A stretch of 33,407 nucleotides of DNA from NCBI GenBank assembly GCA_000826855.1, contig JTLS01000274.1, positions 1 to 33,407 on the forward strand, read 5' to 3'. The notes under the pieces are model-generated. The model did no database searches, was not told the origin of the DNA, and was given only the letters and a program-made list of their open reading frames with translations. The translations under genes were made by a program, and so were the position numbers. Positions within the stretch are counted from its first letter, which is position 1. The number at the start of each line of letters is the position of its first letter. Source of the DNA: Basidioascus undulatus. Lineage: Eukaryota. Of this stretch, positions 3,368 through 27,308 are shown one piece after another.

Positions 3368-4812
3368 ATGAAGACTGTTCTGATAGGACCCGGCTTCCTC
3401 GGTGAGTCCCCTCCTCACTTCCTCATGCACGACCACCGCCTGTGGCTCTTCTCCAAACCTGCCCATCCGTTCTCGCTCCCCAGGGTCCTACATCGCCCGC
3501 ACGCTCATCCAGAACCCGTCCAACACCGTCGCCCTCGCCTCCCGCTCGCCTCAGATCTTGCACTCTCAGCTCGCCCCGCTCGGGCGGCAAATCCTCGCCC
3601 CAGCCCCCGGCGTCGACATCACCCGTCCTGAGACGCTCCCCACGGCGCTCGAGGGCGCCGATAGCGTCGTTAATCTCGTGGGCGTCCTTCATGGTAGTCG
3701 CAAGAAGTTCTACAACGTTCAGGTACACGGCGCGGAGCACGTAGCTCAGGCGGCGGAAAAGGTCGGCGCCAAAATCGTCCATATTTCGACGATTGGGGCA
3801 GATCCGGAGAGTACGATCTATTATACCCGCACCAAAGGTGAGTTTGCGCCATGTGCTCTGCCCTTCCTCTATTTGCTAACGCCAGAGGACCTGGCAGCTC
3901 TCGGCGAGCAAGCTGTTCTTGCCGCCTCCCCGAGCGCAACCATCATCCGTCCCTCCCTCATCTTCGGCCCAAGCGACAGCTTCTTCTCCCGTTTCGGCAC
4001 TCTCGCTCGCATCCTCCCCTTCCTTCCGGTATTCGGCGGTGGCAAGACGCGCTTCCAGCCCGTCTACGCGGGCGACGTCGCGCGTGCAGTCGAAATCTGC
4101 TTGCGCCCTGAAGCGCGGGAAAGGGTCGCTGGGAAGATCGTGGAGGCTGGGGGACCGGACAGTGAGTCTTTTATTTGCGTATGGGAAACGTATGGGAAAG
4201 GGAAGGGGCAGAGTCGGATGAGAGGCTGATCGAAGGCGACAAGGAGGGAAGTCTTGACCTACCGCGAGATCATGGAGCTCGTCCTGGAGTACACGCAGCT
4301 TTCTCGGCCGATCGTGTCTCTACCATTCTGGGTAGGGAAGCTCCAAGGTCTCTTCCTCGAGCGCCTGCCCGAATCCATCTTCACTCTCACGCGCGACCAA
4401 GTGCGTCCTCCCGCCCCCCTCCCCCCCTTCCCCCATTTCTTGCTATTCTGCGCTCACCTCGCCGCACCCCGTTCAGGTCGAGCAACTGAAGCGCGACAAC
4501 GTCGTCACACCCCTGCACTCTCTCCCCGACTCCGAGCTTCCCTACCATATCTCCTTCCGCCAGCTCCTCGGCGCCTTCCCCCCGCCGGGACCATCCTCCG
4601 CCCCGCCCTCCGAGCACCTCACCAGCGTCACGTCCATCCTCCCCACGTACCTCAGCCCGAAGGGCAGCGTGCCGGACAAGCGGACGCACGGGCGGAACTA
4701 CGTGGGTGCGGGGGATGGGGAGCGGCTGAAGGCAAGGGAGAAGGAGCGAATGAGGAGGAGGAGGGAGATGCGAGAGTTGAAGGATCCGAGCGATAGGGAT
4801 GGGAACCGGTAG
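3368..4812 (+). CDS. NAD(P)-binding atypical SDR, NDUFA9 (complex I 39/40 kDa subunit)-like; 5 exons
   Basis: Exons 3368-3401, 3484-3837, 3898-4161, 4252-4400, 4477-4812 splice in frame. Motifs: IGPGFLG|SYIA (Rossmann), VVNLVG, YTRTK (YxxxK), IIRPSLIFGPSDSFF, FQPVYAGDVARA, LTRDQ|VEQLKRDNVV. Confidence 0.88.
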
Positions 4813-5382: not shown

Positions 5383-7240
5383 ATGTCTGACGGGAAAATC
5401 TCATCGCTTTCGACGCTGTCGCTGCACGCGGACGACCTGCACCATCACAACGAGCGGGATGTCGCACCCCGTATCTCCGTCTCAACCAGTAGATCACTCA
5501 CCCTCGACTCGCATCGATTTCCCCATCACTGAGATAGCTTGGAATGCTCGTAGCTTTCAGGCACCCTCATCCGGAGTTCCTTGACGACCTGAAGGAGAAG
5601 GGAGAGCTCAAGGACTGGGATCCTGCGAACCCCGAGGGCGTCCACATCTACTCTCGCTACACCCAGCAGGTCTCGACTCGGTCCGATGTGCTTAACTTAG
5701 TTGTACTCTACGGGGAAACTAATCGATGTTATCTCTGCTGTTAGCGCCGAGACAGTCCTCTCGAAGATCTCCGGCGGACACGCAATCGTTTTCGCCTCGG
5801 GTCTGGCCGCGTCTTACGCTGTCCGTCCCGCCTTGAGCAATCTAACAATCGCTCGTGAAACTCACGCACATCCCAATAGGCGCTGATTCACTTCAAGCCT
5901 AAGCGTATCGCCATCCGCGAGGGCTACCACGGCGTCCACAACGCGATCGAGGTGTACAAGCGCATCAAGACCGACCTCGAGGTCGTCGACCTCAACGCGG
6001 ATGTGGGCGAGGGCGACCTGGTCTGGGTCGAGACGCCGCTGAACCCCACCGGCGAGGCGCGGTGCGTTTGATGAGAATCTGTCTTCATCACTGCGCTGTC
6101 TCGCGATACTGACGAGGGTGAATGACAGGGACCTGCGCGTGTACGAGAAGAAGGCGCACGACGCTGGCGCGAAGCTCATCGTCGACGCGACCTTTGCGCC
6201 TCCGCCCGTGTCGGACCCATTCAAGTGGGGCGCTGACCTCGTCCTTCACAGCGGTACGTCAATTGCTGTCCATTGTACGGTGAAAACTTGCTGACCGCGG
6301 CAATCGCTGCAGGCTCCAAGTATTTCGGTGGCCACTCCGACGTGGTCGGTGTCCTTCCATGCGTTTTCCGAGCCCCGATTGCTGAAGTCCCTTCCCATAG
6401 CTCGCAGGTGTGCTCATTGCCAAGACCGTGGCGGAGTGGCGCGAGGTGCGCTGGAAACACATTGAACCCCTCATTCGCCTCCGCTCACCCTCTCGCCGAC
6501 AGCTCTGGCACATCCGCACCTTCACCGGTGCGAACCTCGGCTCGCTCGAGGCATGGTTGCGTGCGTCCCTTCGCTGCTCCTTATCCCACGTTGCACCTCC
6601 TGACTCGCCCCCGCCTCCCGCAGTCCTGCGCTCCCTCCGCACCTACTCCCTCCGGGTGAACCAGCAGTTCGCGACGGGCACCGCGCTCGCGACCTGGCTC
6701 TCCCGGATCGCCGAGTCGGGCGAGAAGGGGTTCGACGGCGTCCCAGGCGGCGTCGTCGACGCTGTGTGGCACGCCGCGCTCCAGAAGGAGCCTTGGGTCC
6801 GCGAGCAGGTCAACAAGGGCCCGGCGTGCTTCGGGCTCAGGCTGGCGAAGGAGGAGCACGCGCGGATCCTGCCCCACTCGCTGCAGTACTTCACCGTGCG
6901 TCTGCCCCTTTGTGCTCGCTGAATACAAGTCGTCGCTGACTCATTCGGCCTGGTCAATACAGCCCGCAACCTCGCTTGGCGGCGTTGAGACGCTCATCGA
7001 GCAACGCTGCGTGTCGGATCCGGGTGCGGACCCTCGCGTCATCCGTATCTCGGTCGGGCTAGAGGACATCGAGGTTTGTCATCCGCTCCTCGTCACTCAA
7101 ATAGATCGCTGAATGTCCACCTTCGCACTGCAGGATCTCAAGGACGACCTTCGCCAGGCGTTGAACAAGATTGCCCAGGTACTTACGGCACCGGCGTACA
7201 GCGTACGGTTGAGCACTGACAGACTCGTTTGCAGACGTAG
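5383..7240 (+). CDS. PLP-dependent trans-sulfuration enzyme (cystathionine gamma-synthase/gamma-lyase family); ~12 exons
   Basis: Spliced product contains TLSLHAD, ISVSTT|F, YSRY, FASGLAA, WVETPLNPTG, VDATFAPP, HS|GSKYFGGHSD (PLP-binding Lys), ATSLGGVETLIE and IRISVGLEDIE|DLKDDL. It ends in a 6-nt exon ACGTAG (7235-7240). Confidence 0.93.
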
Positions 7241-7415
7241 ACGGGACATTAGGCGTTGCACACCTTTGAGACCTCAAGTAGCCTTTCTGACTTGTGCACA
7301 AAGCCGAAGCCGGTCGCACGAAGTAGCTCGATACTTCGTAGGCATGAAGTTTGACTCTATGTGTGGTTCAGTCAGAATGATCACGTCAGCTCCTTCGTAT
7401 CGTGAGAATGAGAAT

Positions 7416-9162
7416 CACTGTCATGAAAGGAGATAATCATGTGACTTTGCTTGATCAATATTGGTCAACTCGAATAAATTGACTGTGAAAAGGGCAATTG
7501 AACAGCGAAAAAGGACATATAAAAGTCAAGCTTTGTCAATTACAGTGGTGGTCTGGTCAACACATAGTCAAACCAACAAGTCTATTAGCCAATGTCTGGT
7601 CAACCTTTAGTGAAACGGCTGGTCCATGCATGGGTTTTTAGTCAATATAGTCAAATAAGAAAATGAGACGCAAAGGAATTGCCCAGATCACGCTTTCAAT
7701 TTTACTCGGGATCAGGGCCACCTCAACAGTCTTTCACTGAGCTCAAGGCCTTCCACTGACCCTTGTTGTCCATGCATTTGCTGTGGTTTAAACCTGCGCT
7801 ACTTACCTATCCAGGAAATTTACAAGATATACTTACCAACTTAGTCAAGGAGACCTGTGCACCACACCACAGCCTTACAGTATGACATTCCGCTTCAGCA
7901 CATTTGGGCCAGTGTGCTATTGAAACATCACAAGGGGAAGATACATTAGTATTTTCACACAAATTTCAACAACATACCAAAGGGCGCAAATGCAAATAGT
8001 GAGGGGCAAGCTTTGTCTCCTGCTCCCTGCCAACCGCAAGCTAGAGCAACCTCCTTACTGTTCTCTGAGGCAGTAGTCAATGTGACTATAAGCAAGCAAT
8101 GTCGTTTTGTTTCTAATCAAAGAAAGATCTCAATATAGGTTTGGATGTGGAGTCGTTGAGGATGAATGACACCTCTAACGAGGCATGTAGTGAGCCCACG
8201 CTTCCGCGGAGACCAAGTCCAGAAAACTCCAAGTGTCACTCACCGCTTTCACAACATACTCAAACACTTGTTATTCGGTGTATATCCTGCATAGGCAGCT
8301 CAGTCAGAATCCCAGTGGGAGTCTGGACACTGTCCCTGTCAGTCACACCCCGCTTGTGGAGCGTCGTCCACATTGTTCCACCTTCAATATTGGGATTGGA
8401 GTATGTGGAGGTCACTGTTAATCGTGTCACATTTCTTCTTAGACAGGACCTCGAAATTTTTAGCACGAATTTGCATTGGGGGACATTTTACTGTACCTGT
8501 GGGCAGTGAGACTCAGGAGGAACCCAACAGGCACGTAAGGTAGGGGTCACTTGGAAGTCATCTGCTTATGTAAGCGGCAAATCTAGGCCTTTCCCATTCC
8601 CCGACCACCAGGAGGCTCAACTGGCCCATCGATTGTTGCCTTGGGAATGAGGAATAAAAGTGGGCTAGGGGAGGTGATGACTTTAAGTGACTCCTTACCT
8701 TTGCTTGCGTTACACAAAAGTGTTGAAGCTCTCACATGTTCAACTCTGTCTTGTGAGAAACAACTATGCTTATTGCTGTAGCCTTAACTATATTTGACTG
8801 TAACAGCTCTGATTTGGCTAGGCATTGAATGCAACCCAGCCATATTGACTATAAGTGACACTCGAGATGCGGCATTAAACAGATTGACTGTGCAGCGGCC
8901 ATATTAACAAGATTGAATGCAAATGGTCCACTTTGACCACCAACTGACTCCAAGACAGTCACATTGACTACAATCGACTGAAAAACTCTTGTTTGACTAT
9001 CTAACACTTGTGACCAATTCTGCGGCGCTTTCAAGACAGCGGCTGGGTGAAAGTGTCAAAGCTTTCGCAGCATGATCTCGCAATGGCACTGCATATTGTG
9101 AATAAGCGAAGCTGATTTTCTCCCTGTAATTCTTGTGAACCATATGAATATTTGTGACAGCG
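7416..9162. mobile_element. Degenerate non-autonomous DNA-transposon-like element with inverted subterminal repeat arrays
   Basis: Lower GC and visibly scarce CpG compared with the flanks. Eight GTCAA in 7464-7654 and six TTGAC in 8794-8997. Imperfect ends: CACTGTCATGAA (7416) vs TTTGTGACAGCG (9151-9162, rc CGCTGTCACAAA). No TSD and no recognisable transposase. Confidence 0.5.
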
Positions 9163-9769
9163 CTGCGCGAAGCTTTCAAACATGATCACAGCGTTCGGCA
9201 CCGAGACATAGTTCAGGCGCTCTTGCGTTCCAGGTGCTCGCATGCTGCCGACAATCTACCACTATCCAGAAAGCACTTTATCGCCGAGCTAGGGCCCGAT
9301 AGACTATCGAAGGAGTCCCTCGTCGTCCGCAGCTGACCAGAAGCCGTAACAACTAAACAACAACATGGTCAGACAAGGTCAAGGGACGTTCAAGAACATC
9401 ATCGCTGAGAACCTGGATAAAGAACATAGAAACCGACGTGTTGAATGCGGAAGAACGTGAGACAGTGTAAAGGTAAGGCCTGAATCACAGAGGATAGGCG
9501 GTACGAGACGCTCAAAGGGGAATAGAAAGACGGTGGAGGACAGTGTGGCTATCAAATGAAGGTGTCGTGAGAAAAGCCCAAAGAAAAAGAAAAGAAGCGG
9601 TACAAGATTGCTCTACTGGGTGAAGTGACGAAAATTTGAAGCATAAAGGCGGTGGAGGGCACCGTCGGGATGACTGGTAAGTGAAGTTGTGAAAGAACGC
9701 AGAGAAAAAAAAAAAGGATAGAAACCGAAGGAAACTCGTCGTGAAGGAGTGTCGAGCGTAAGAAGCTTT

Positions 9770-10535
9770 TCATGGCGAGGAAGGAGAAGGAGCAGGCAAG
9801 ATGGGAAGCGAGGGGGTCGTGATGGACTTGAGTGCGTCGTGCGTGGGCGTGCGGGTGAAGGGACCACCGGAGACTGATATCAGGGGGAGCTGAGCAGAGG
9901 GGTGGGTCTGGGTACGGCGGTGCGTGCTGGACGTGCGGATGGCGAGGGTCGAGGCGGATTGGGGTCCGAGGGGCAGGGGCGGGCGGCACAGTAACGAGAA
10001 GGTGGGTGCTACGAGTCTTGTCGGTCGTAAGCGTCGGTTCCCCTGCGCTGAGCTGGAAGCTGAGCAGAGCACGAAAGTGAAGACGCACTCTCGTCCCCCG
10101 TGGGCTGCACGCCCTCGCTCACGGTCCACCTCCTCTTGTCGCTCTCGCGCTCTTTCGCGGGACGGAGGCGGGAGGGAATGAGACTTGGGAGAGCTTGGAC
10201 ACCTTGCGCTGACCGGCAGCGAGAACGACGTTTAGAGAGCGGGCTGAGCCGTGGACGTTCTCGCTGCGAGGATAGGACTGTCAGCGAGCAGCGCCTGAAG
10301 CTGGAAAACGCTGCAGGGTCGGAGAGAGAGACTTAGCGCGGCGCTGCAGCCTGTGTGAGACGATGTCGTCACCTCGGGAGGTGTATCGGACGATTTCGGG
10401 CGTCGCGCTGGGCCGGTAGGGAGGAGAAGCACTGTCGGAGGCGCTGGACTTGGGGGAGACGCTGCCGATTTCTGATCGCTGAAGGGGGGTTGTCGGGACG
10501 GCTGAAAATGGAAGGGGGGGAGAAGCGCATTGCAT
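9770..10535 (-). CDS. Possible Ser/Pro-rich hypothetical protein; exon structure unresolved
   Basis: Minus-strand ATG at 10535 opens an S/P-rich frame. Intron-like segments at 10264-10332 (GCTGAC branch, CAG) and 10009-10088 (GTGCGT...TAG). The obvious first donor does not give a stop-free join. Confidence 0.3.
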
Positions 10536-11446
10536 AGGCGGGAGGGGGTGCGTCAACCGCGGCGTGCTGTAGTTCCGCAGTTGCTGATTGAAGAGGAGGG
10601 ACTCGACTTGGGGAGGAAGGCGGGGAACGAGCGTGTGCGGGGAGTGCGTGAAGGGGTCGGACACGGCATAAGGACCCGGTGTAGGCTTAGGAAACGATAT
10701 GGTAGAGCAATGGTGAGAAGGAAAGGGCAAGCTATAAAGCACAGCATAGCATTTCATCAGTGGTCGGGCCATGCCATCCAGGCACTGCCCCCCCCGGACC
10801 TCGAGGCCTGTCACGCCTTTGCTGCAGCACGGCGGTGTCGCGGCACGACGACACGAAACACGCCGAAGACAGATTGGGTTCGAGAACCAGGGAGGCTTCG
10901 GTATGCGGCGTCTGTGGACTCGAAGCACCGTGGAGGCCGCTGCAGTGTCGCCGATCCTGTATTTAGGAGTTTCAAACAGTCTGGCACATGAGAAGACAGG
11001 AGAATGTGTACTTAAACGCGTTGGTACTTTCTTTGGATTTTGTCGAAATGCGCGCTTGTGTCTGTTGAGCAGCTTGAACCTGGTACTGGTTGGGCTCGCC
11101 GTGGCCAGCTTTGGGATGCTCAAACCCCTGCGCTTCAGCATGATGTTTCGCCAAGGAAAAAAAAGGCCTTCAGGCATGCTTCTAAGCAGCCGGGCGACAT
11201 CGTGCCGACTGAGGAAGTCACTTACCGGTCCAGCTACTTACGCACCCGGTGGTCCCACGCAATACTTCTTGCCCACCCCAAGTATCACAAATTGAGAAAT
11301 AAGGGTATATAAGCGAAATACTATAAAAGATTAAAGACCACGTCCCAAAATGAGAAGAGAGCGTCCATCCGCAAAGCGATCCGTCCGTCCATCCGCCCGT
11401 CCCAACCACTCTGCGTCTTCAAGAGCACCGCGCGCCCTCCCTCGCC

Positions 11447-12107
11447 TCAGAAGATAGCCCTCACAAGGCCCCCACCGATAGCCGCGCCTGCCCCGAACCC
11501 GGCCCCCTGCACCGCGCTGTCGCCCGCCTTGCTCCCGAACTTCTGCCACTTGCTCTTCTCCTGCGGCTGCCCGGGCGCGGGCGGCGGCGGCTGGCCCATC
11601 TGCGCGCGGAGCATGGCCTCGAGCTGGGCTGCGTGCGACCCCACCCATATCTTCAGCATCATACGCCTCACGAGAATTAGGACAGAACGAAGTGAAGACG
11701 CACCAATCTTGTCCTCCATTTCCCTCAATCGCTTCCCCCTCGGCTCGGGCTTCTTGCGCCCCGCGTAGACCGGCTCGGGGTCGTACACGCATTCGACGCT
11801 GCCCGTGAAGGACGGGTCGGCCGCGAGGCGCAGCTGGTGCGACTTAATGCACGTCGCGCATGCTGGGCGGACGGCGTCGCATTTCTGGGGGTGGGGACAA
11901 GGGGTGAGTCAGTCGGAGGAGCAAGGGTGCTGGTGAGTGGACTGTGCCTGGTGTAGTCCTCCGTTCCCCTTGCTTCCATCCCCCCTCGCAGGTCCGCTCT
12001 CACGACCAATACACAGTACAGACACTCACGAGCTTCCTCTTCCGACATGTCAAGCAGGCCTTGTTCCGCTTGAGCGCGTAAGGCTCCTCCGTCGGCGACT
12101 TCGGCAT
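11447..12107 (-). CDS. Small (146 aa) Zn(II)2Cys6 zinc-cluster protein with short coiled coil and Gly-rich hydrophobic C-terminal tail
   Basis: Exons 12107-12030, 11884-11704, 11628-11447 total 441 nt with canonical GTGAGT/GTGCGT donors and CAG acceptors. Sequence: ACLTCRKRKL|KCDAVRPACATC-x19-CVY, then LREMEDKI|AQLEAMLR, then KFGSKAGDSAVQGAGFGAGAAIGGGLVRAIF*. Confidence 0.9.
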
Positions 12108-13415
12108 CGTGATCCACCGATGGTCGAGCGGCCGAGCGATAAGGAGCGTGAGCGGCCTGGTGTACGAGTTCAAGGGGAGCCTCGCGCGCAGGAGACGGCT
12201 GAGGAAGGATCGGTCAAGGATAGGATGCCCGCCTGCCAAGCTGCTGCGGAGATTATCGAAATGTGTAGATGCTGATGCTGAGCAAAGCCAAAGCAAGGCG
12301 GTGAATGCAAGAAGGTGTGCTGGGAGTACTGTGCCGATGCGGACGCGTTCAGTTCAGCCGCTGACAGCCATCCCCGAGGCCTGAGACAGTGGACACACTG
12401 ACAGACTGACAGGCCCTTCGAGTCCTCCTCCAGCTCTGTTTTTCTCTCCCTCATTCTCTACAGAAATCCCAAGTGTTGATTTTGCCTGGCCCCCTATACT
12501 GTGTGTCTTGGAAAGTCCTCGAGGATACTCCAATGTTAAAGCGCGGGCAAATCCGACTCGGAGGATCTTGGGGGCTCACCCCTCTCAAGCTCCTACGTCT
12601 TCTTTCCGACCGCACTCACCCTCAATCGATTTCGTATCGCGTTTTCGAGCGCTCAAACCTGACCAATGTCGCTTTAATCTCTCGTCTCGCTCCCTCCCGA
12701 GCTTCTCATCTTCGTCCGCAACGAGCTTCCGACCCTCGGCACATGCGTCGCCTTCTCGCAGACAGGCCGCCTCTGGCCTCACCAAGTATCTTCTCCAGCC
12801 TCGATCTCTTTAATAGCGAAGAAACAGCCGAAATTACAGCCGAGGGATGGATTGACTATTGCCCCCCAATCCGCTACGCTTTGACGTGTACCCGTTCGAA
12901 TGATCCCGCGTCTTGATGTTGTCTTTCTTCCGCCCTTCGGCTTTGCTCAATTCCCCATACCTCCAACGTTATGGTCTACTGGGAATTCGGACGTCCAGGC
13001 TCCGCTGTTATGCATCTTTCTTACTTTCTGTAGCACCTTTGCGTGTCAACAGCACTGTTCCACGCTGATACCCAGTCAGTCTGTGAAAGCGCAGATGCCA
13101 ACAAGGCTTCAGCCGTGGCTGCCCCTTGAGGGATGTCGTTATTTGAGGATACCGGCCATCTGAGGACAGGATACTTGCCGGCGATGTCTGAGTGCTGCTC
13201 CTTGAGCCGGGAAAAGGCGCCGGTCCTGTCGCGATCTTTGGTCTGTTTCGCCGGCTTTGTATTGCTCTAGACCTGCCTCAAACTTCATGAGATTATTTCG
13301 TCAGTTGAAAAGTTTTGTAACATGCTTGCTACTTGTGTGGTTTGGGGGCGCAGAATGCCTGCCGGTGGGAGCTTTGAAGACTGTGACGCCGAACATGCCC
13401 CGTCGGCGTCCAGTG

Positions 13416-15363: not shown

Positions 15364-16212
15364 GAACGAGAAGTATGGGGGCAAACGCGAAAACGGCGAC
15401 ATGCCGCGGGACGGCATTCATCTTGAACTGAATATTTCTTCTTGGTACCCTGGGTTCCTTGACGTTCGGGGTGAAAGAGCTGTAAATAATGTCTCAAGCA
15501 AACCGAGCTGTTCTACATCACGCATCGAAAGCGTGATGCATCAATGCCGAGCCTCGGAGTCCTCCGCCAGCCCAAGCAAGCTTACGCATTCGGCGAGATT
15601 GCCTCTAGAGTCTCTGCATCACGGTTGTGGGAGACAGGGAGAAGCCCTGTCTGCAACTTCAGGTTGATGAGGTGACCTGCAGCCTGCGTCTGGGCGGGGT
15701 GAACATCGAGCGAGCATAGTAAAGCGGTAGTCACGCGACGGAGGTCAGGCTGTAGGCAATATACGAGGTTCTCTTTTTTACAGAATCAGTGGCATAGTGA
15801 TGTGATGCGATGCGGCGATCAGCAACTGTTTTCGGCCTCGTCAATCCGACAATGAGCGGTAGAGCCGACAGCGAGTCGCAGTCGACGATAGTCTGAGCCA
15901 CGCAAAGCCAACAATCGTTTCGAGAAAGACAAATGATAAGCAGATGAAACCGACGTATACCCTGAAATGCCGGACCAAGACCAGAGACCATATATCAAAG
16001 ACGCATGTGAACCAAATAACCGAAAGTGCAGCAGGAAAGGAAGCGACCCAAGAGCGACACAAATCGACATTGTCGAGAAGAATGGCGGAGGGATGAGACA
16101 TGGAGAAGCGATGGGCAACATGTGATCGGTGGGCAGGGGAGCGAAGAGATGGAGCGGAGAGAGAGAGAGAGGAGGGCGGGCATTGAAGAGGGAGGAAGGA
16201 CGGCACGAACGC

Positions 16213-19200
16213 TCATGCGCTCGGGTTCTGCTTCACCGCCGGCCGGGCAGCGACGACGTTGAAGCTTGCTCGGCGAGCGTCAGGAACTGCCTTGACTCCT
16301 CCGCCCGCCATCGCCTCGGACAACGCGGGCGAGTGCTCCGCCACTTCCGCTGTCCCGGCGTTCGGCACAGAGCCGGGCAGGTGCGAAGCGGACCCAGGGG
16401 GGGACGAGGCGTCGTTCGCGAGCTTGAGCCCGGCTATGAGACCGAGCAGGTCCGCCTGCGAGCGGCTGCCGCTGCTCCCGTTCAGAGGCGCGGCGGCGTC
16501 CGTCTCGGGTGCCGGAGGAGCCGGCGCGGCAGCGAAGGATGAGGAGGTCGGCGGTGTGTCGCTCCCTGGCGCAGAGTACGACACGCTCTGGGTCGACCCG
16601 CGGCGGTTTGTGAGGCGGTCGGGCACAACAGACGGGAACGGGTATTCCTCGCTGGTGTTCTGGATGCTCGACCGACGGGCGGACGTGTCCGCGCCGCTCC
16701 CGCCGCTCCCTGCGCTGCCACTGCCGCCTTCTGCGTGCTCGACGACGCTCTCGAGGCCGAGCGAAGCGATCGATTGGGCATGATAAGGCTGCGGCTGGTG
16801 CGGAAGACTGGGGAAAGGCGGGAACATGGGGTTGTACCCGGGCGGGCCTTGCGGAGTGCCCGGAGGAAGGTGGAGAGGTGCGCCGGGCGCGGGGTTGAGG
16901 AATGGGTTGTAGTGTGTCGGCGGAGAGGCGGGACCGAGCACGCCGGGGGAGAACGGCCCGAGGCCAGGAGAGAGGAACTGGGGGAGGAGTGGAGGCGTTT
17001 GGGGGTAGGGAGGGTGGAAGAAGAACCCCGGCATGGACGGCGTCATGGGCACGCCGCGTGTCGTGTTGAGCGGGGAGAACGGCCCGCCGATCTGCATCGG
17101 CGGAAGTTGGATCGGGCCCGGGTGGGTCGCGGGAGGTCGCGACTCGGTCGGAGCGTCGTCCGCGTGCCGCTCGGCCGCGGATACGCCGTTCTGCTCTGGC
17201 TTCGGCGGGTTCGGCTTGGCGAGCTCCTCCGAAGGCGGGAGTCCGAGCCCTGTCGGTGGCACATCCGACAGGAGCGGGCTCTCGATCGGCTGCGGCGTCG
17301 GCGGGCGGGGCGCGGGCGGAGGAGGGAAGATGAACGCCGGCGACGGCGCGTAGAACGGCGAAGGGGGAAAGGGAGCCGAGCCGTCTGGCGTCAACACGCC
17401 AAAGTCGTGCGGGAACATACCCTGTGGCGGCGGCGGCGGCGGCGGAAGTGGGAGCTGCCCGCTGGTGTACATAGGGTACTCCGAGCTTGGTGACGCGAGC
17501 GGGTACGGCAGGTAGAGCCCGTGCATCGGCGGGGAGATGCCCGGCTGCCCACCGCCGCCGGGGAGCTGGTTGTACTTGTCGAAGTGGACTGCAATTGAAT
17601 GGAGTCCGATGTCAGAGGTCGCACGCTCTGCAGCGCAAGACAGGAAGACAGCGAAAGCGCACCCTTGAGCTGTCGCCCGCTGTATTCGTAGCTGTGCAAT
17701 TGCGTTTCAGCTTTCAGTCCTCCTTGGAGGACAAAGAAATTCATTTCACGACGCACCCATGGAACATGCGTACGGCGTTCGCAGCGTCTGCCTCACTCGC
17801 AAAGAGGACCGTTCCAAACCCGCGGCTGCGGCCGTCAGGACCGAGGGCGACATCGGCGCGGAGGATGTTTCCCGCCGTGCGGAAGAGGTCCTTGAGGTCC
17901 TGCCATTGAACGTGAAACGCTGCCGGAAGTCTGGGCGTAAGTCTTTGAAATGTTTGGAGCCACAGCGAGACGCAACGCACGAAGATTGCCTACAAAGAGC
18001 ACACGGCCTGCAAAATTCTGAGGTGCGGGAGAAGGACGCTGCGGGTATTGTCCAGAACCATTTAGACTGCTGCACTGCCCATCGCAACCAAACCAAGGAA
18101 AGGATGCGACTCACCCCACCCATCGGACCATGCGGACTGAGCCCCTGCCCCGGCGGCAGGGGCGGCAAGAACCCGGGTGCGGGCCCGACGATCGGCGGTG
18201 CCGACCCGCTGCCCGACGGGCTCATCGCCTTCTGCGCTGCTCCGATCGCCGGCGTACTCAAGTGTGAGAAGAGTGGAGGCGGCATCGGACCAAGGCTGCC
18301 TGGCGGTCCACGCCGCTCGGGTGCAGCGGCGGGCGGCGGCGGGTGCGGCGGCTGGGGCGAATGGATCCAGGGCGTGGGCGAGTGCGACGGCGGGGGAGGC
18401 GGATGGTGGTGCGGAGGGAGGAGGTGGGGAGGGATGGACCCGGGCGGAGCGGCCGTCGCTGCTTGGCCCGGCGGCAGAGGAAGGTCGTACTCGGGCGGAA
18501 GGCGGTCAGGGCGCACTTCGAGCGTGCGCGTTTGCCACGAGTAGCCATTGTACATCTCTGGATAAGCCAACGTAGCGTTAGCCACTTGACAAATCATTGG
18601 GATATCAAGGACAACTCACCAATCGCCTTGGCCGCGTCAATCTCGTTCCCCATCAGCACGGTGCCGTAGCCTCGGCTGCGGTTGTCCGGACCGAGCGCAA
18701 CGTCCGCCCTGAGCACCGTCCCGCTCTTTCTGAACAGGTCCTTCAAGTCCTGCCACCGAACACGGTACGGAAGCTGCCCCAAACAGCTCGTTCAGCATCT
18801 TGAACACGGCCTCCGCTACTGAGCACCCGAACGAGCCAGACAGAAACGTACATTGCCGACATAGAGCTGGGTCCGCCCGTCGCGCCCGCTCGCGCCGACA
18901 CCGCCCCCTGGCGTGCCGAGTGGGGAGCGGCCAAGAAGGGACGCGGCCGCAGCGGTAGACGAGGCGGTCGCGGCCTGGATGACGGACTCGATGTCGGAGT
19001 TGGACGGCTGGCGGGGCGGGGAGAGGGGTCGGGCAGGCGGCGCGACAGGTACGGATGCAGACTGGGTCGGCGTGCCGTGCTGCTGCAGGGATGAGGCCGA
19101 GGCGGGGCGGGGGACAGGCGAGAGCCCAGCGGGGATCTGCAGAACGCAGGCAGCCGTGGTCAGTTGGGGACCAGACGGCGCAGATGGAGCGGGGATTTGA

Positions 19201-23429: not shown

Positions 23430-24612
23430 TCACGGCCCGCCCTTATTCCTCACAAAGTACTCCTCAGGCGTGAAGAACGGGATCCCGATCCTGCGCGCAA
23501 AGCCCTTGTCCGAGTCCGAGTGGTCGCCGCTCCGCCCCGCCGCATCCCCAACATAGAACGAGCCCTCCATATCTTCTCTCTCTCCCTCCAACCCTCAGCG
23601 TCGTTGCGTAATGTCGAGAGGGAGGAGCGGAGAGACGCACCGATCTCGATCGACGGCGATGCGTCCTCGCACAGCCCCGCGAGGTGGTCCCACATGCCCG
23701 TGTTCGGCTTGCGGTACTCGTCCTTGTTGATTGCGGCGAGGGCGAAGAGCGGGACGTCGCCGAGCTGCGGAAGGCGTCAGCAAGGTTGTTATGAATGTTG
23801 GGATAGATAAGCGCGAGGGAGGACGAACGTCGCAGGCGATGAGCGGGATCTTGCGACGCCATTCGTCAAGCTTCTTGGGCTGTTTGATGTAGTTCTGGTT
23901 GGAAATGATCACAACGGTGCACCTGCGCAAGTGGAAGAGCGTCAGGTAAGCAAATGTAATCACCCCTGTTGCAGAGGGTCGGTCACTGTTCGCTCGCGCC
24001 GTCGTATCCGCCTCAAGAATGAAACCCTTCCTAGCACACCAAGTTCAAGCAACGTAAAACTCCCCCTCACCCCTTCTCATGCGCCTCCCTCAACCGCCTC
24101 TTGACCGCCGCTCCCCCGTCCTTGCCCCACCACTTCCAGTCCCTCTCGTCCTTCGGGAAGCGCGCGCCGCTCTTGGGCGTGATGAGCGTGCCGTCGAGGT
24201 CGAAGCATGCGAGCTTCGCGCGGAGCGGCGGGGAGAGGTAGCTGCCGTAGATGAGCGTCGGGGGCGAGGGGAGCCACTCGAGCTTGGAACGAGGGATTGC
24301 GACGGAGGTGGACGTCGTGGAGGTGGTGGTGCTGGTGGAGAGGGAGCTGCCGGTGGAGAGGGAGCTGCCGGTGGAGAGGGAGCTGCCGGTGGAGACGGCG
24401 GTACTCGTCGTCTTCGTTGACTGCTTGATGAACATGGGGTGAACTGGGGGTATGGGTGTCAGCTTGGAGGAGGCGGAGAGAGGGAAGGAGAGAGCACTGG
24501 TCTTGGGTATCTTGGCCGCCTTCATGCTGCTGCTCGAGCTTGAGTCCTTCTTGGGGCTCTCGATGTCGATGTGGTTGCGCTTAGAGACAGGCTTGTTCGT
24601 CGGCGAGGACAT
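23430..24612 (-). CDS. DNA 3'-phosphatase (PNKP/Pnk1/Tpp1-type HAD domain), no kinase domain visible
   Basis: Motifs: [11 protein letters not shown] (HAD motif I), DWKWW, VVIISNQ (II), YRKPNTGMW (III), [19 protein letters not shown] (IV), FFTPEEYF. The exact 3' end is uncertain: TGA at 23430, or a further intron at GTGAGG. Confidence 0.9.
24334..24395. repeat. Coding 18-bp minisatellite (3.4 copies) encoding STGSSL repeats
   Basis: GGTGGAGAGGGAGCTGCC x3 plus GGTGGAGA, in the low-complexity N-terminus of the phosphatase. Confidence 0.92.
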
Positions 24613-26006
24613 GACGCTGATTGTGTGAGTCGTGCGGGTTGGGCGGGGGTGACGGAGAGCGTCGTGGGATGAGGGCAACCTGGACGGGGTCATCTTGATT
24701 CTTGCATTGACGCGTCTAGGTCGCGTCGCAGCGCGTCGTCCGCCAAATTAATGTGGCCTACCCTTGTCTCCTATAGCGACCTGGCTGTTTTCCTGGTACT
24801 CATAAAACTAACCTTTGGAAACAATATAACGCCCTCGCTTAGCGTTGAGCAAGGTCACAGTCTGAAGAGTCGATCCTGCTCCTCAGCCCAGGGTACGACA
24901 TTGGACGCCAAATGCTGCCACTTACGAAATTAATTTAGTTCTCGATACAAGGCTGAAAAAGTAACCCTGCGACGGCGCATGTAGCTCCGCCAGTCTTTCC
25001 AGCGCCTCCAGCTCGCAAATGCCACATGACGAGCGACGGCTTGAAACCGGCCAACATACGGCCTCCTGTCAGGATTTAGGTAGCATGTGCTCTTGATTTT
25101 CTCATGGAAAATATACTCTCACGAAGGCCACCCTCACGAAGGCCAACTGCGCACTTACGGTGAAGCAATGCAGGTAGGTAGCATCGTCTCCAACTGGGTC
25201 CGTCAAGGGCCCAAAAGGGGGGCTTGGCACTGTGCAGGTGTCCCATTCTTCTGTAAAAATTCCTTAGACTGAAGGGTATTCGAATCTCCGAGCTTGCTGC
25301 TCTCGCAGCCACGGCGGGATGCCGCCGTATGGCATGAAAGGCTGCGCAGTGGCAGGCAGCCAAGTAGCTCGCTTTCGCTTTGCACCTGGCCAATAATGTC
25401 CACGAATCTAAAGCTATTCTTTTACACCACCTTAGTAGGAGGTATTCTGAACTCACAGCTGAGGAGTAACTTTCTCCGGGCGTGCTTCCGGAGCCCATCC
25501 GCGTCAGTGTGGACATCGCGCACTTCTTGTGGTTTGCGTTCAGCCTTCCATTTTCAAGTTTAATTATATATCCATGGCTTCTAACAGGCTTTTAAGGCTC
25601 TCTTCTAGGGCAGCCGTCTGTGCTTCCACGCCGATTGTTGCAGCAAATTCCCACAGGCAGGAAACCTTAAACCCGGTCGGAGTGCTGTATTCGATGTCAA
25701 GTTCTGTTCAACCTCCAGTTTAAGCACTGAGATTGTAAAGGGTCCGAGGAAAAGTGAATCTCACTATACCAAGTTAGTTTTACCGTACACATACTGTCCC
25801 AGCAGGCGAGTGCCGGCGAAACTAGCAGTACGGCAGTGCCATCAGATCATATGGCGTTAACCAACCTCGCAGTTTGACCAATGACGGCTTTGTACAAAAC
25901 GGGGTTTCCGAATCTACTACTAATTTCCTGCAATATAATGCACTCGACAGCACTCGACAGCACGCAGTGTATTTAAAGTGTGAAGCGAGCGGCTCAAACG
26001 CATAGC

Positions 26007-27308
26007 TCAACAGCCCTCAACCTCAGGTCCAGGTAGGTACATAACCGCATCATACGTGTGTGACTTGTCTGGGTAAAAGTACTTGTGCTGGGGCCAATCC
26101 CTTCTCGACCGCGCCGGATCCATTAGCGCTCCCTGTATCCGTTGCCAGCACTCCGCTGTAAAGTCGAAGACGTACGCTCTCTGGTACTCCGAGGAACAAT
26201 ATCGCATACCGTGGCACCTTCCACAGCGGTGCGGCCCGTCCTTCTTGCACTTGGGCAAGCTACAAATTTGACCCTTGCAGACGAGCCGGATCAGGTAATC
26301 CCATGCCTTGGCGATGAACGGGTCCGGGGTGGAGGATAGTAACTCCGCCTGGGTCAGGGCCATGTGCGTTTTGACGGCGTATACGCGCGGCGAGACGTCC
26401 GTGCTGCGTGGGGGACCGAATATTCGCGGAGAGCGAGGTCGTGGAGAAGATACTGGTTCATCGCTTCGAGGAGACAGCGGTAGGCCGCTGCGGAGCATGC
26501 GGAAGGGGGGGATAGGTTCAGGGGAATCAGCCGAAAACATCGACCAGTGAGGGTGGCTGGAAGGTATGTAACTGTTCCTTACTCACGGTGGTACAATGTT
26601 GGCACTTTGGAGATGTGGACACCGAGCCCGCTCAGCACTTGCCAGAGGCCGGTGTCGATCCACCTTCTCATCACGACCCTTTATCACACCCAATTGATGC
26701 GTTGCCTGAATAAAGTGAGTATCCCGAACGAACCTATCGCCGTGCACAACGTCGATCGCACCTGTCATAGCCATCAACCCGGGCAACAGGACCCTGTTTC
26801 GGGGACCGCCTGCATAAGGGGGCGACTCAAGCTCGTCGACGAGCGCCTCGAGCACACCGTTGGCCACCGCGCTCCGGCATCCCAACAGCACGGTAATGCA
26901 CATGAACGCGTACGCCCAATGGGGAAGGGCGCCCTGTTTACGGGTCCAATAATCAGACTGCCCGTATATCGCCACATTCCACAGACCTCAAGAGGCTCAC
27001 CGTCGCTCCCGTCAGGGTCGAGTGCTGTGCATCAAAGAAACGCTCCATGAGCGGACGGAAGATGCCGAGGCGCTGGAATATATCTGCAGATACCAACCCA
27101 TATCAGCACCGCCTCGCCACCAATTTGCATTGAATGGGCACACCGGTCCGTTCTGGTAAGTAAGTGCGGCGTGAACCGGCGCGAGGACGTCGAAGTCGTC
27201 TTTGTCGGGACGCAGCGCGCAGAGTTGCAGCACCGTGCCTGCCGCATCGATGAGAGCGCCTGCTGCCTAAGCTTGCCAGAGTGGGTCGGCGTGCCACCAG
27301 TCTTTCAT
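26007..27308 (-). pseudogene. MYND zinc-finger protein, degenerate; may extend upstream to ~27850
   Basis: CSLPKC..CGRC..RYCSSE[Y]QRA|DWPQHKYF[Y] follows the MYND consensus with two ligand Cys replaced by Tyr (26184-26186, 26073-26075). In-frame TAG at 27267-27269, and frame switches between protein-like upstream segments. Confidence 0.65.

Follow-up and report, generated by a model that had tools for sequence, protein, structure and literature searches.

A candidate chimeric gene joining a Zn2Cys6 zinc-cluster head to the C-terminal tail of an Lsb1/Csh3-type SH3 adaptor

Introduction

Dominant-negative regulators that consist of a DNA-binding or dimerisation module only are exemplified by microProteins, such as plant LITTLE ZIPPER, and by the Id proteins. 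Other transcription factors are tethered to membranes, as is the case for yeast Spt23/Mga2 and for SREBP. For the zinc cluster of Gal4-type factors, PROSITE gives the Zn2Cys6 rule as C-x2-C-x6-C-x5-12-C-x2-C-x6-8-C. A tail-anchored NAC factor exists in lettuce, according to an extract of the published account (PMC9545932). Tail-anchored membrane proteins carry a single hydrophobic span of about 20 residues within about 30 residues of the C-terminus; they are inserted post-translationally (by GET, SND or EMC) and withstand carbonate extraction. Among the papers listed in our literature search, none dealt with both Zn2Cys6 and tail-anchored factors.

A second set of proteins that bears on the present locus comprises the SH3 adaptors Lsb1, Lsb2 (Pin3) and Csh3. 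Passages of PMC3620054 describe an SH3-dependent binding of Lsb1 and Lsb2 to Las17, their ubiquitination by Rsp5, and the appearance of Lsb1 as mobile puncta close to the plasma membrane. A 'pro-aggregation' effect of Lsb1 and Lsb2 is mentioned in an extract of PMC6767215, and a section of PMC10218661 states that heat shock induces a shortened or processed form of Lsb1. In part of the text of PMC8429772, the Schizosaccharomyces pombe protein is termed 'Lsb1/Csh3'.

Here we describe a three-exon gene on a contig of Basidioascus undulatus (JTLS01000274.1; 33,407 nt, the whole of which was analysed and is called the window below). Its predicted 146-aa product has a C-terminal tail homologous to that of the Lsb1/Csh3-type adaptors, carries no domain beyond its zinc-cluster head, and has an architecture that is unmatched in the protein sets searched.

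Results

The gene lies on the minus strand. Joining its exons by coordinates gives a spliced CDS of 441 nt, which encodes 146 aa and a stop, and translation would begin at the earliest in-frame ATG (12107-12105) of the open frame 12000-12353. The features are as follows.

12107-12030, minus strand: exon 1, with the ATG at 12107-12105; residues 1-26, containing the basic N-terminal flank and the cluster cysteines C18 and C21
12029-11885, minus strand: intron 1, 145 nt, GTGAGT..CCCCAG, its single CTRAY branch site lying 24 nt before the 3' end
11884-11704, minus strand: exon 2, residues 27-86 and base 1 of codon 87; it contains four cluster cysteines (C28, C35, C38, C58), a basic stretch and the coil's first half (L79, M82, I86)
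11703-11629, minus strand: intron 2, 75 nt, GTGCGT..ACGCAG, in frame and stop-free
11628-11447, minus strand: exon 3, residues 87-146 and the TGA at 11449-11447; it contains the coil's second half (L89, L93, M97) together with the Pro-rich linker and Gly-rich tail
11561-11596, minus strand: Pro/Gln-rich linker, residues 98-109, encoded by GC-rich, (CCG)n-like DNA
11450-11584, minus strand: tail module of 45 aa (residues 102-146), with homology to the C-terminal end of Lsb1/Csh3-type SH3 adaptors
11450-11506, minus strand: distal 19 residues, with a G-x3-G-x3-G pattern, the best-conserved part of the tail

Both introns have GT..CAG borders. Only excision of intron 1 at precisely these positions yields the C-x2-C-x6-C spacing, and the heptad positions L79, M82, I86, L89, L93 and M97 run unbroken over the joint of exons 2 and 3 only when the 75-nt intron is taken out. 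Retention of intron 2 would give a product of 171 aa that still ends in the tail. Use of its two inner AG sites, at intron positions 37 and 53 and preceded by G and A, respectively, would shift the frame and remove the tail, leaving products of 88 aa and 192 aa. Composition points the same way: GC by codon position is 0.62/0.53/0.88 over the CDS and reaches 0.90 at third positions (GC3) in exon 3, so that the coding part (GC3 0.88-0.90) stands clear of the introns and flanks (GC 0.53-0.61). Of the 425 open pieces in the window that reach 50 aa, 21 show a strong GC3 signal, a piece of the chimeric gene among them. The three-exon frame contains neither a frameshift nor a stop. Judged by splice sites, cluster spacing, heptads and GC3, the 146-aa model appears credible, and all the elements that the initial annotation had listed for it (a Zn2Cys6 cluster, a coil, a Pro-rich linker and a Gly-rich end) were recovered in place.

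The window as a whole is GC-rich and intron-bearing, with a GC content of 0.46-0.70 per kb. Elsewhere in it just two domains were clearly seen: 3387-4229 on the plus strand matches an NAD-dependent epimerase/dehydratase (39.7 bits), and 24067-24747 on the minus strand matches the beginning of a polynucleotide kinase 3'-phosphatase domain (36.7 bits). Just downstream of the chimeric gene, the plus strand of 9001-11000 has a strong purine excess (GC skew between +0.22 and +0.26, with AT skew reaching +0.23); a stop-free frame of 318 aa at 10281-11237 on the minus strand has no Pfam match, and 9419-9728 contains weak direct repeats of 18 nt with spacings of 154 and 138 nt. The region 7001-9000 is AT-richer (GC 0.46) between its GC-rich flanks, and its open pieces of at least 45 aa are without Pfam match. 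At 16000-19000, where GC rises to 65-67%, long overlapping frames occur on both strands (e.g. 497 aa at 16213-17706 on the minus strand), again with no Pfam match; low-complexity coding sequence or the GC-rich composition could account for this block. Finally, the open frame 26007-26582 has no Pfam match and includes, at 26202-26225 on the minus strand, a Cys/His-rich stretch, C-x2-C-H-x2-R, which we take to resemble part of a MYND-type zinc finger.

In the predicted spliced protein, cysteines at positions 18, 21, 28, 35, 38 and 58 are separated by 2, 6, 6, 2 and 19 residues. The initial four gaps fall within the PROSITE rule, and the final gap of 19 lies outside its range of 6-8. Pfam was scored exon by exon. 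Exon 1 by itself lacks the length for a score and gave no match; exon 2 by itself matched positions 12-26 of the 39-position Zn_clus profile (PF00172), scoring 18.7 bits with an E-value of 0.0019. The score lies under the gathering cut-off of 21 bits because intron 1 splits the domain and so removes its initial third. Since the sixth cysteine follows a 19-residue loop and the exon-wise score is below cut-off, the cluster may nevertheless be degenerate. Behind the cluster comes a putative coil of the dimerisation type, with a 3-4 spacing from L79 to M97 that by simple heptad count amounts to approximately 2.5 heptads.

What usually follows in a Gal4-type factor was reported missing in the initial annotation, and this was borne out both in the protein and around it. 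The protein stops at residue 146 and contains no middle homology region (Fungal_trans, PF04082 / PF11951) or activation domain. Moreover, the interval from 6.5 to 15.5 kb contains, on its two strands, 129 open pieces of 45 aa or more; none passed the Pfam cut-off, and Fungal_trans was not among their matches; the chimeric gene thus sits in a stretch of approximately 9 kb that is free of recognisable domains, with no middle-homology region within approximately 4 kb. No second copy of the zinc cluster or of the tail was found elsewhere in the window, nor did we find repeats linking the chimeric locus to another site within 9-14 kb. A metagenome search with exon 2 gave 525 pattern matches, two of which passed tblastn; both were discarded as spurious, since they shared AADPSFTG only and had neither the cysteines nor the tail.

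When the window was translated in six frames and searched with a profile built from 12 SH3 proteins (A1), the only match was to residues 102-146, which aligned to profile positions 193-237 with 58.3 bits; the E-value of 7e-17 comes from a small search, of the window only, and database-wide E-values of the tail matches are 1e-4 to 8e-4. By BLASTP, 28 of 41 tail positions are identical in protein P0004 of Paxillus involutus, including 19 of the last 19. Searches of large protein collections, for which the read-through frame (P0001) and the product of exon 3 (P0003) served as queries, retrieved only SH3-domain proteins of approximately 230-280 aa, or fragments. A first protein search gave two matches among 164 candidates and a second gave seven among 280, all seven with an SH3 Pfam domain. 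A HMMER search over 1.84 billion representatives gave eight matches with E-values up to 0.001. In the seven of these that were examined, the tail was present in every case, together with a whole or partial SH3 domain in five, the other two being short fragments; the eighth, P0012, is a protein of 2981 aa matched in five stretches, which we took as compositional. In the ESM Atlas the best score for the exon 3 product (59 aa) was 0.82, which we treat as a lead only.

Pfam found no SH3 domain in the chimeric protein; neither tblastn nor the family profile detected an SH3 remnant near the tail in the six-frame window; and since the profile match is limited to positions 193-237, no counterpart of the N-terminal helical hairpin of the adaptors was found in the window. 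Weak collinear tblastn matches at 11734-11823 and 11886-11978, obtained with P0007 and P0010, were considered as SH3-gene remnants and rejected as compositional, being absent from the family-profile search. A further weak SH3-like tblastn match, at 5704-5856, was set aside as it belongs to no Pfam family. Within exon 3, homology to the SH3 family sets in at the Pro-rich stretch and not at an intron, which makes this an in-exon fusion and not exon shuffling; the fusion point is probably within the Pro-rich linker, in its GC-rich, (CCG)n-like DNA. The suggestion in the initial annotation that an SH3 domain had been swapped for a DNA-binding domain describes the outcome.

A profile search with the adaptor family collected 216 proteins, and the best 120 of the 216 all have SH3 domains. 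The named species among these 120 are Agaricomycetes, and one entry, P0023 from Hypsizygus marmoreus, is named 'Protein csh3'. Two adaptor paralogues occur in several Agaricomycete species, among them Artomyces pyxidatus, Heliocybe sulcata and Psilocybe cubensis. Pfam recognises the SH3 domain in P0004 and P0016, and has no family for either the tail or the N-terminal helical hairpin. An AlphaFold2 model of P0004 (115 sequences) shows a confident N-terminal hairpin at residues 5-46 (helices 5-29 and 35-46), a confident SH3 domain at 92-148, and an unstructured tail with a pLDDT of about 50. In the ESM Atlas, P0004 lies nearest to SH3 clusters from basidiomycetes and ascomycetes, with lengths of 229, 241 and 258 aa. 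A PDB sequence search with P0004 returned generic SH3 matches (Grb2, Crk, intersectin), which do not discriminate Lsb1/Pin3 orthology. We take the pattern of the tail to be that of S. cerevisiae Lsb1/Pin3. What ties the family to Lsb1 is nomenclature, namely the entry 'Protein csh3' and the 'Lsb1/Csh3' usage for the S. pombe protein. Thus, of the Lsb1/Pin3-like tail originally proposed, the homology to the C-terminus of SH3 adaptors holds at 58.3 bits, and the putative connection to the yeast proteins is one of names.

The head and the tail were not found together elsewhere. No protein combining a zinc cluster with this tail was present in three large protein searches (164 and 280 candidates, and 1.84 billion representatives), and the zinc-cluster pattern occurred in none of 131 family proteins. 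The collections also lack the product of the window's own gene. The best reading is that the combination is a singleton in the collections searched and restricted to this lineage, in agreement with the initial annotation, whose author knew of no description of such an architecture.

Conservation within the tail is uneven. Among the 131 family proteins there are two types of ending, LVRAIF (59 proteins) versus IINSIF/IINAIF and similar, and seven of the 131 have distal 19 residues identical to those of the chimeric protein. The invariant columns of the family tail all lie inside these 19 residues, and all are kept in the chimeric protein. Against 125 aligned tails, it matches the family at 13 of the 17 columns with conservation of 90% or more, compared with 10 of 30 variable columns; every difference falls in the proximal tail, and the distal segment has 0/19. 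This pattern of divergence fits constraint on the distal motif. The same data may also reflect a recent copy of the tail, and some family members, P0089 and P0096, have proximal tails nearer to that of the chimeric protein. The conservation argument is a weak one, because the fusion may simply be young and the paralogue in the same genome is outside the comparison.

We also considered whether the tail resembles a membrane anchor. The most hydrophobic 19-residue stretch of the protein is residues 128-146, a position that suits a tail anchor; its Kyte-Doolittle mean is 1.28, below the usual mark of 1.6 for a membrane span; the values for the family have a median of 1.41 and a range of 1.06-1.77. 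The hydrophobic maximum lies no more than three residues from the C-terminus in 92 of 125 family proteins. Glycine accounts for nine of the 19 distal residues. No glycine-zipper or membrane Pfam family was found in the tail at E-values up to 10, and no N-terminal hydrophobic segment is present in the chimeric protein. The initial annotation has yeast Lsb1 attached to membranes by its C-terminus and freed by proteolysis under stress, and Ali et al. (JBC, 2014) reportedly link Lsb1 to the GET pathway and the ER; our literature searches found no usable account of Lsb1 or Pin3 as tail-anchored or GET-dependent proteins. A classical tail anchor is doubtful, because the tail is only weakly hydrophobic and AlphaFold2 shows no helix in the tail of the SH3 family. 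The earlier proposal of a membrane-tethered factor is thus unsupported, the hydrophobicity and the low-confidence, unstructured model of the family tail both speaking against it.

Discussion

We favour, tentatively and with a probability of roughly 0.4, a model whereby this is a real, lineage-restricted chimeric gene that encodes a DNA-binding dimer without an activation domain, whose tail controls its location or lifetime. The 5' part would correspond to a Gal4-type module, comprising a basic flank, the Zn2Cys6 cluster, a linker and a coil of some 2.5 heptads, and this head would be expected to form a homodimer on DNA. The Pro-rich stretch of exon 3 is where the head would give way to the last 45 codons of an Lsb1/Csh3-type adaptor gene. 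The resulting 146-aa product could then compete with a full-length zinc-cluster paralogue for its sites, or act there as a repressor, with the borrowed tail setting the share of the product that is nuclear. If the tail acts as it would in the SH3 adaptors, it might do so by association with puncta or membranes, by rapid turnover, or both. DNA binding, dimerisation, the competitor role and control by the tail are all properties that we infer.

Nearly as likely as a functional dimer controlled by its tail is a young, neutral chimera or decaying gene, in which a truncated zinc-cluster duplicate came to lie beside a copied 3' end of the genome's own SH3 adaptor gene, or recombined with it. The frame, the GC3 and the distal tail would then be inherited from the parents and not selected, and the product, if made at all, would have no specific role. 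Such an origin sits well with a protein that is a singleton in every search, with the atypical last loop of the cluster and its sub-threshold Pfam score, and with the domain-free neighbourhood; a junction within an exon, in low-complexity Pro-coding DNA, is also what illegitimate recombination would leave. Against it, the three-exon frame is intact, with good splice sites, continuous heptads and no frameshift or stop, and the tail departs from the family in its proximal part only (0/19 distally), a distribution that uniform decay would not produce. A third possibility questions the gene model itself: exon 3 might lie outside the zinc-cluster transcript, so that the head, through use of the acceptor at intron position 37, would be an 88-aa protein without a tail, or the tail would be translated from an ATG in intron 2. 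Indeed, intron 2 contains two further AG sites and in-frame ATG codons, and its sole CTRAY is 48 nt from the chosen acceptor. However, exons 2 and 3 are just 75 nt apart in an open frame, splicing at the CAG and retention both keep the tail, the coil is complete only when the 75-nt intron is removed, and a preceding G or A gives the other AG sites a weak acceptor context. We therefore regard an artefact of this kind as very improbable.

A tail-anchored factor is the remaining alternative, and an unlikely one. Here the Gly-zipper tail would sit in the membrane of the ER or another compartment, possibly inserted by GET, with the head in the cytosol until proteolysis under stress freed it to enter the nucleus. 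In its favour are the hydrophobic maximum at residues 128-146, which has its counterpart near the C-terminus in 92 of 125 family proteins, the small-residue pattern G-x3-G-x3-G, the lack of an N-terminal hydrophobic segment and the GET and ER link that is said to exist for Lsb1. The processing of Lsb1 after heat shock (a section of PMC10218661) and the precedent from another kingdom, the NAC factor of lettuce (an extract of PMC9545932), can be added to these. However, a freed head would be without an activation domain, the P0004 tail has no secondary structure at a pLDDT of about 50, and no membrane Pfam family was recognised. The Kyte-Doolittle value of 1.28, under the 1.6 mark, and the glycine content of 9/19 likewise speak against a membrane span.

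Whichever account is correct, the locus touches on a conserved sequence, since the last approximately 19 residues are the best-conserved part of the Lsb1/Pin3/Csh3 adaptors in some 130 sequences. We think it improbable that the Lsb1/Csh3 tail is a portable module for holding proteins at membranes or in stress puncta, and that nuclear access of this zinc-cluster protein is gated by tethering and release. Were that so, it would be the first Zn2Cys6 factor whose entry to the nucleus depends on tethering and release through its tail, and a domain swap made by nature would show the role of the conserved Lsb1/Pin3 family tail. Zinc-cluster factors would join the short list of fungal tethered transcription factors if the tail gates nuclear entry. 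The tail on its own, placed on an unrelated and easily assayed DNA-binding head, would amount to a ready reporter of targeting, turnover or assembly. If instead the gene is a neutral young chimera, it illustrates ordinary gene birth through in-exon fusion.

The favoured reading, a DNA-binding dimer controlled by its tail, can be set beside four known systems. Like the membrane-tethered factors (Spt23/Mga2, SREBP and plant NAC), the chimeric protein has its DNA-binding part at the N-terminus and its sole hydrophobic segment at the extreme C-terminus; unlike theirs, this segment is far less hydrophobic and half glycine, and the family tail has no predicted helix. With the Gal4-type Zn(II)2Cys6 factors (PF00172) it shares the cysteine gaps of 2, 6, 6 and 2, the basic residues, a proline before the fourth cysteine, and a linker followed by a short heptad coil after the cluster. 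It differs from them in its length of 146 aa, in having no middle-homology/activation region, in its 19-residue last loop and in a C-terminus that derives from another gene family. As in the microProteins and Id proteins, a head and a dimerisation coil are kept without an effector region, whereas the chimeric protein has in addition a foreign, conserved tail. Compared with the Lsb1/Lsb2(Pin3)/Csh3 adaptors, of which some 130 Agaricomycete proteins were collected, it is without the SH3 domain and the N-terminal helical hairpin, and its proximal tail departs at 4 of 17 well-conserved columns. It nonetheless has in common with them the Pro-rich stretch ahead of the tail and the last 45 residues, in which a KSK-type basic patch is followed by a Gly/Ala-rich motif ending in IF.
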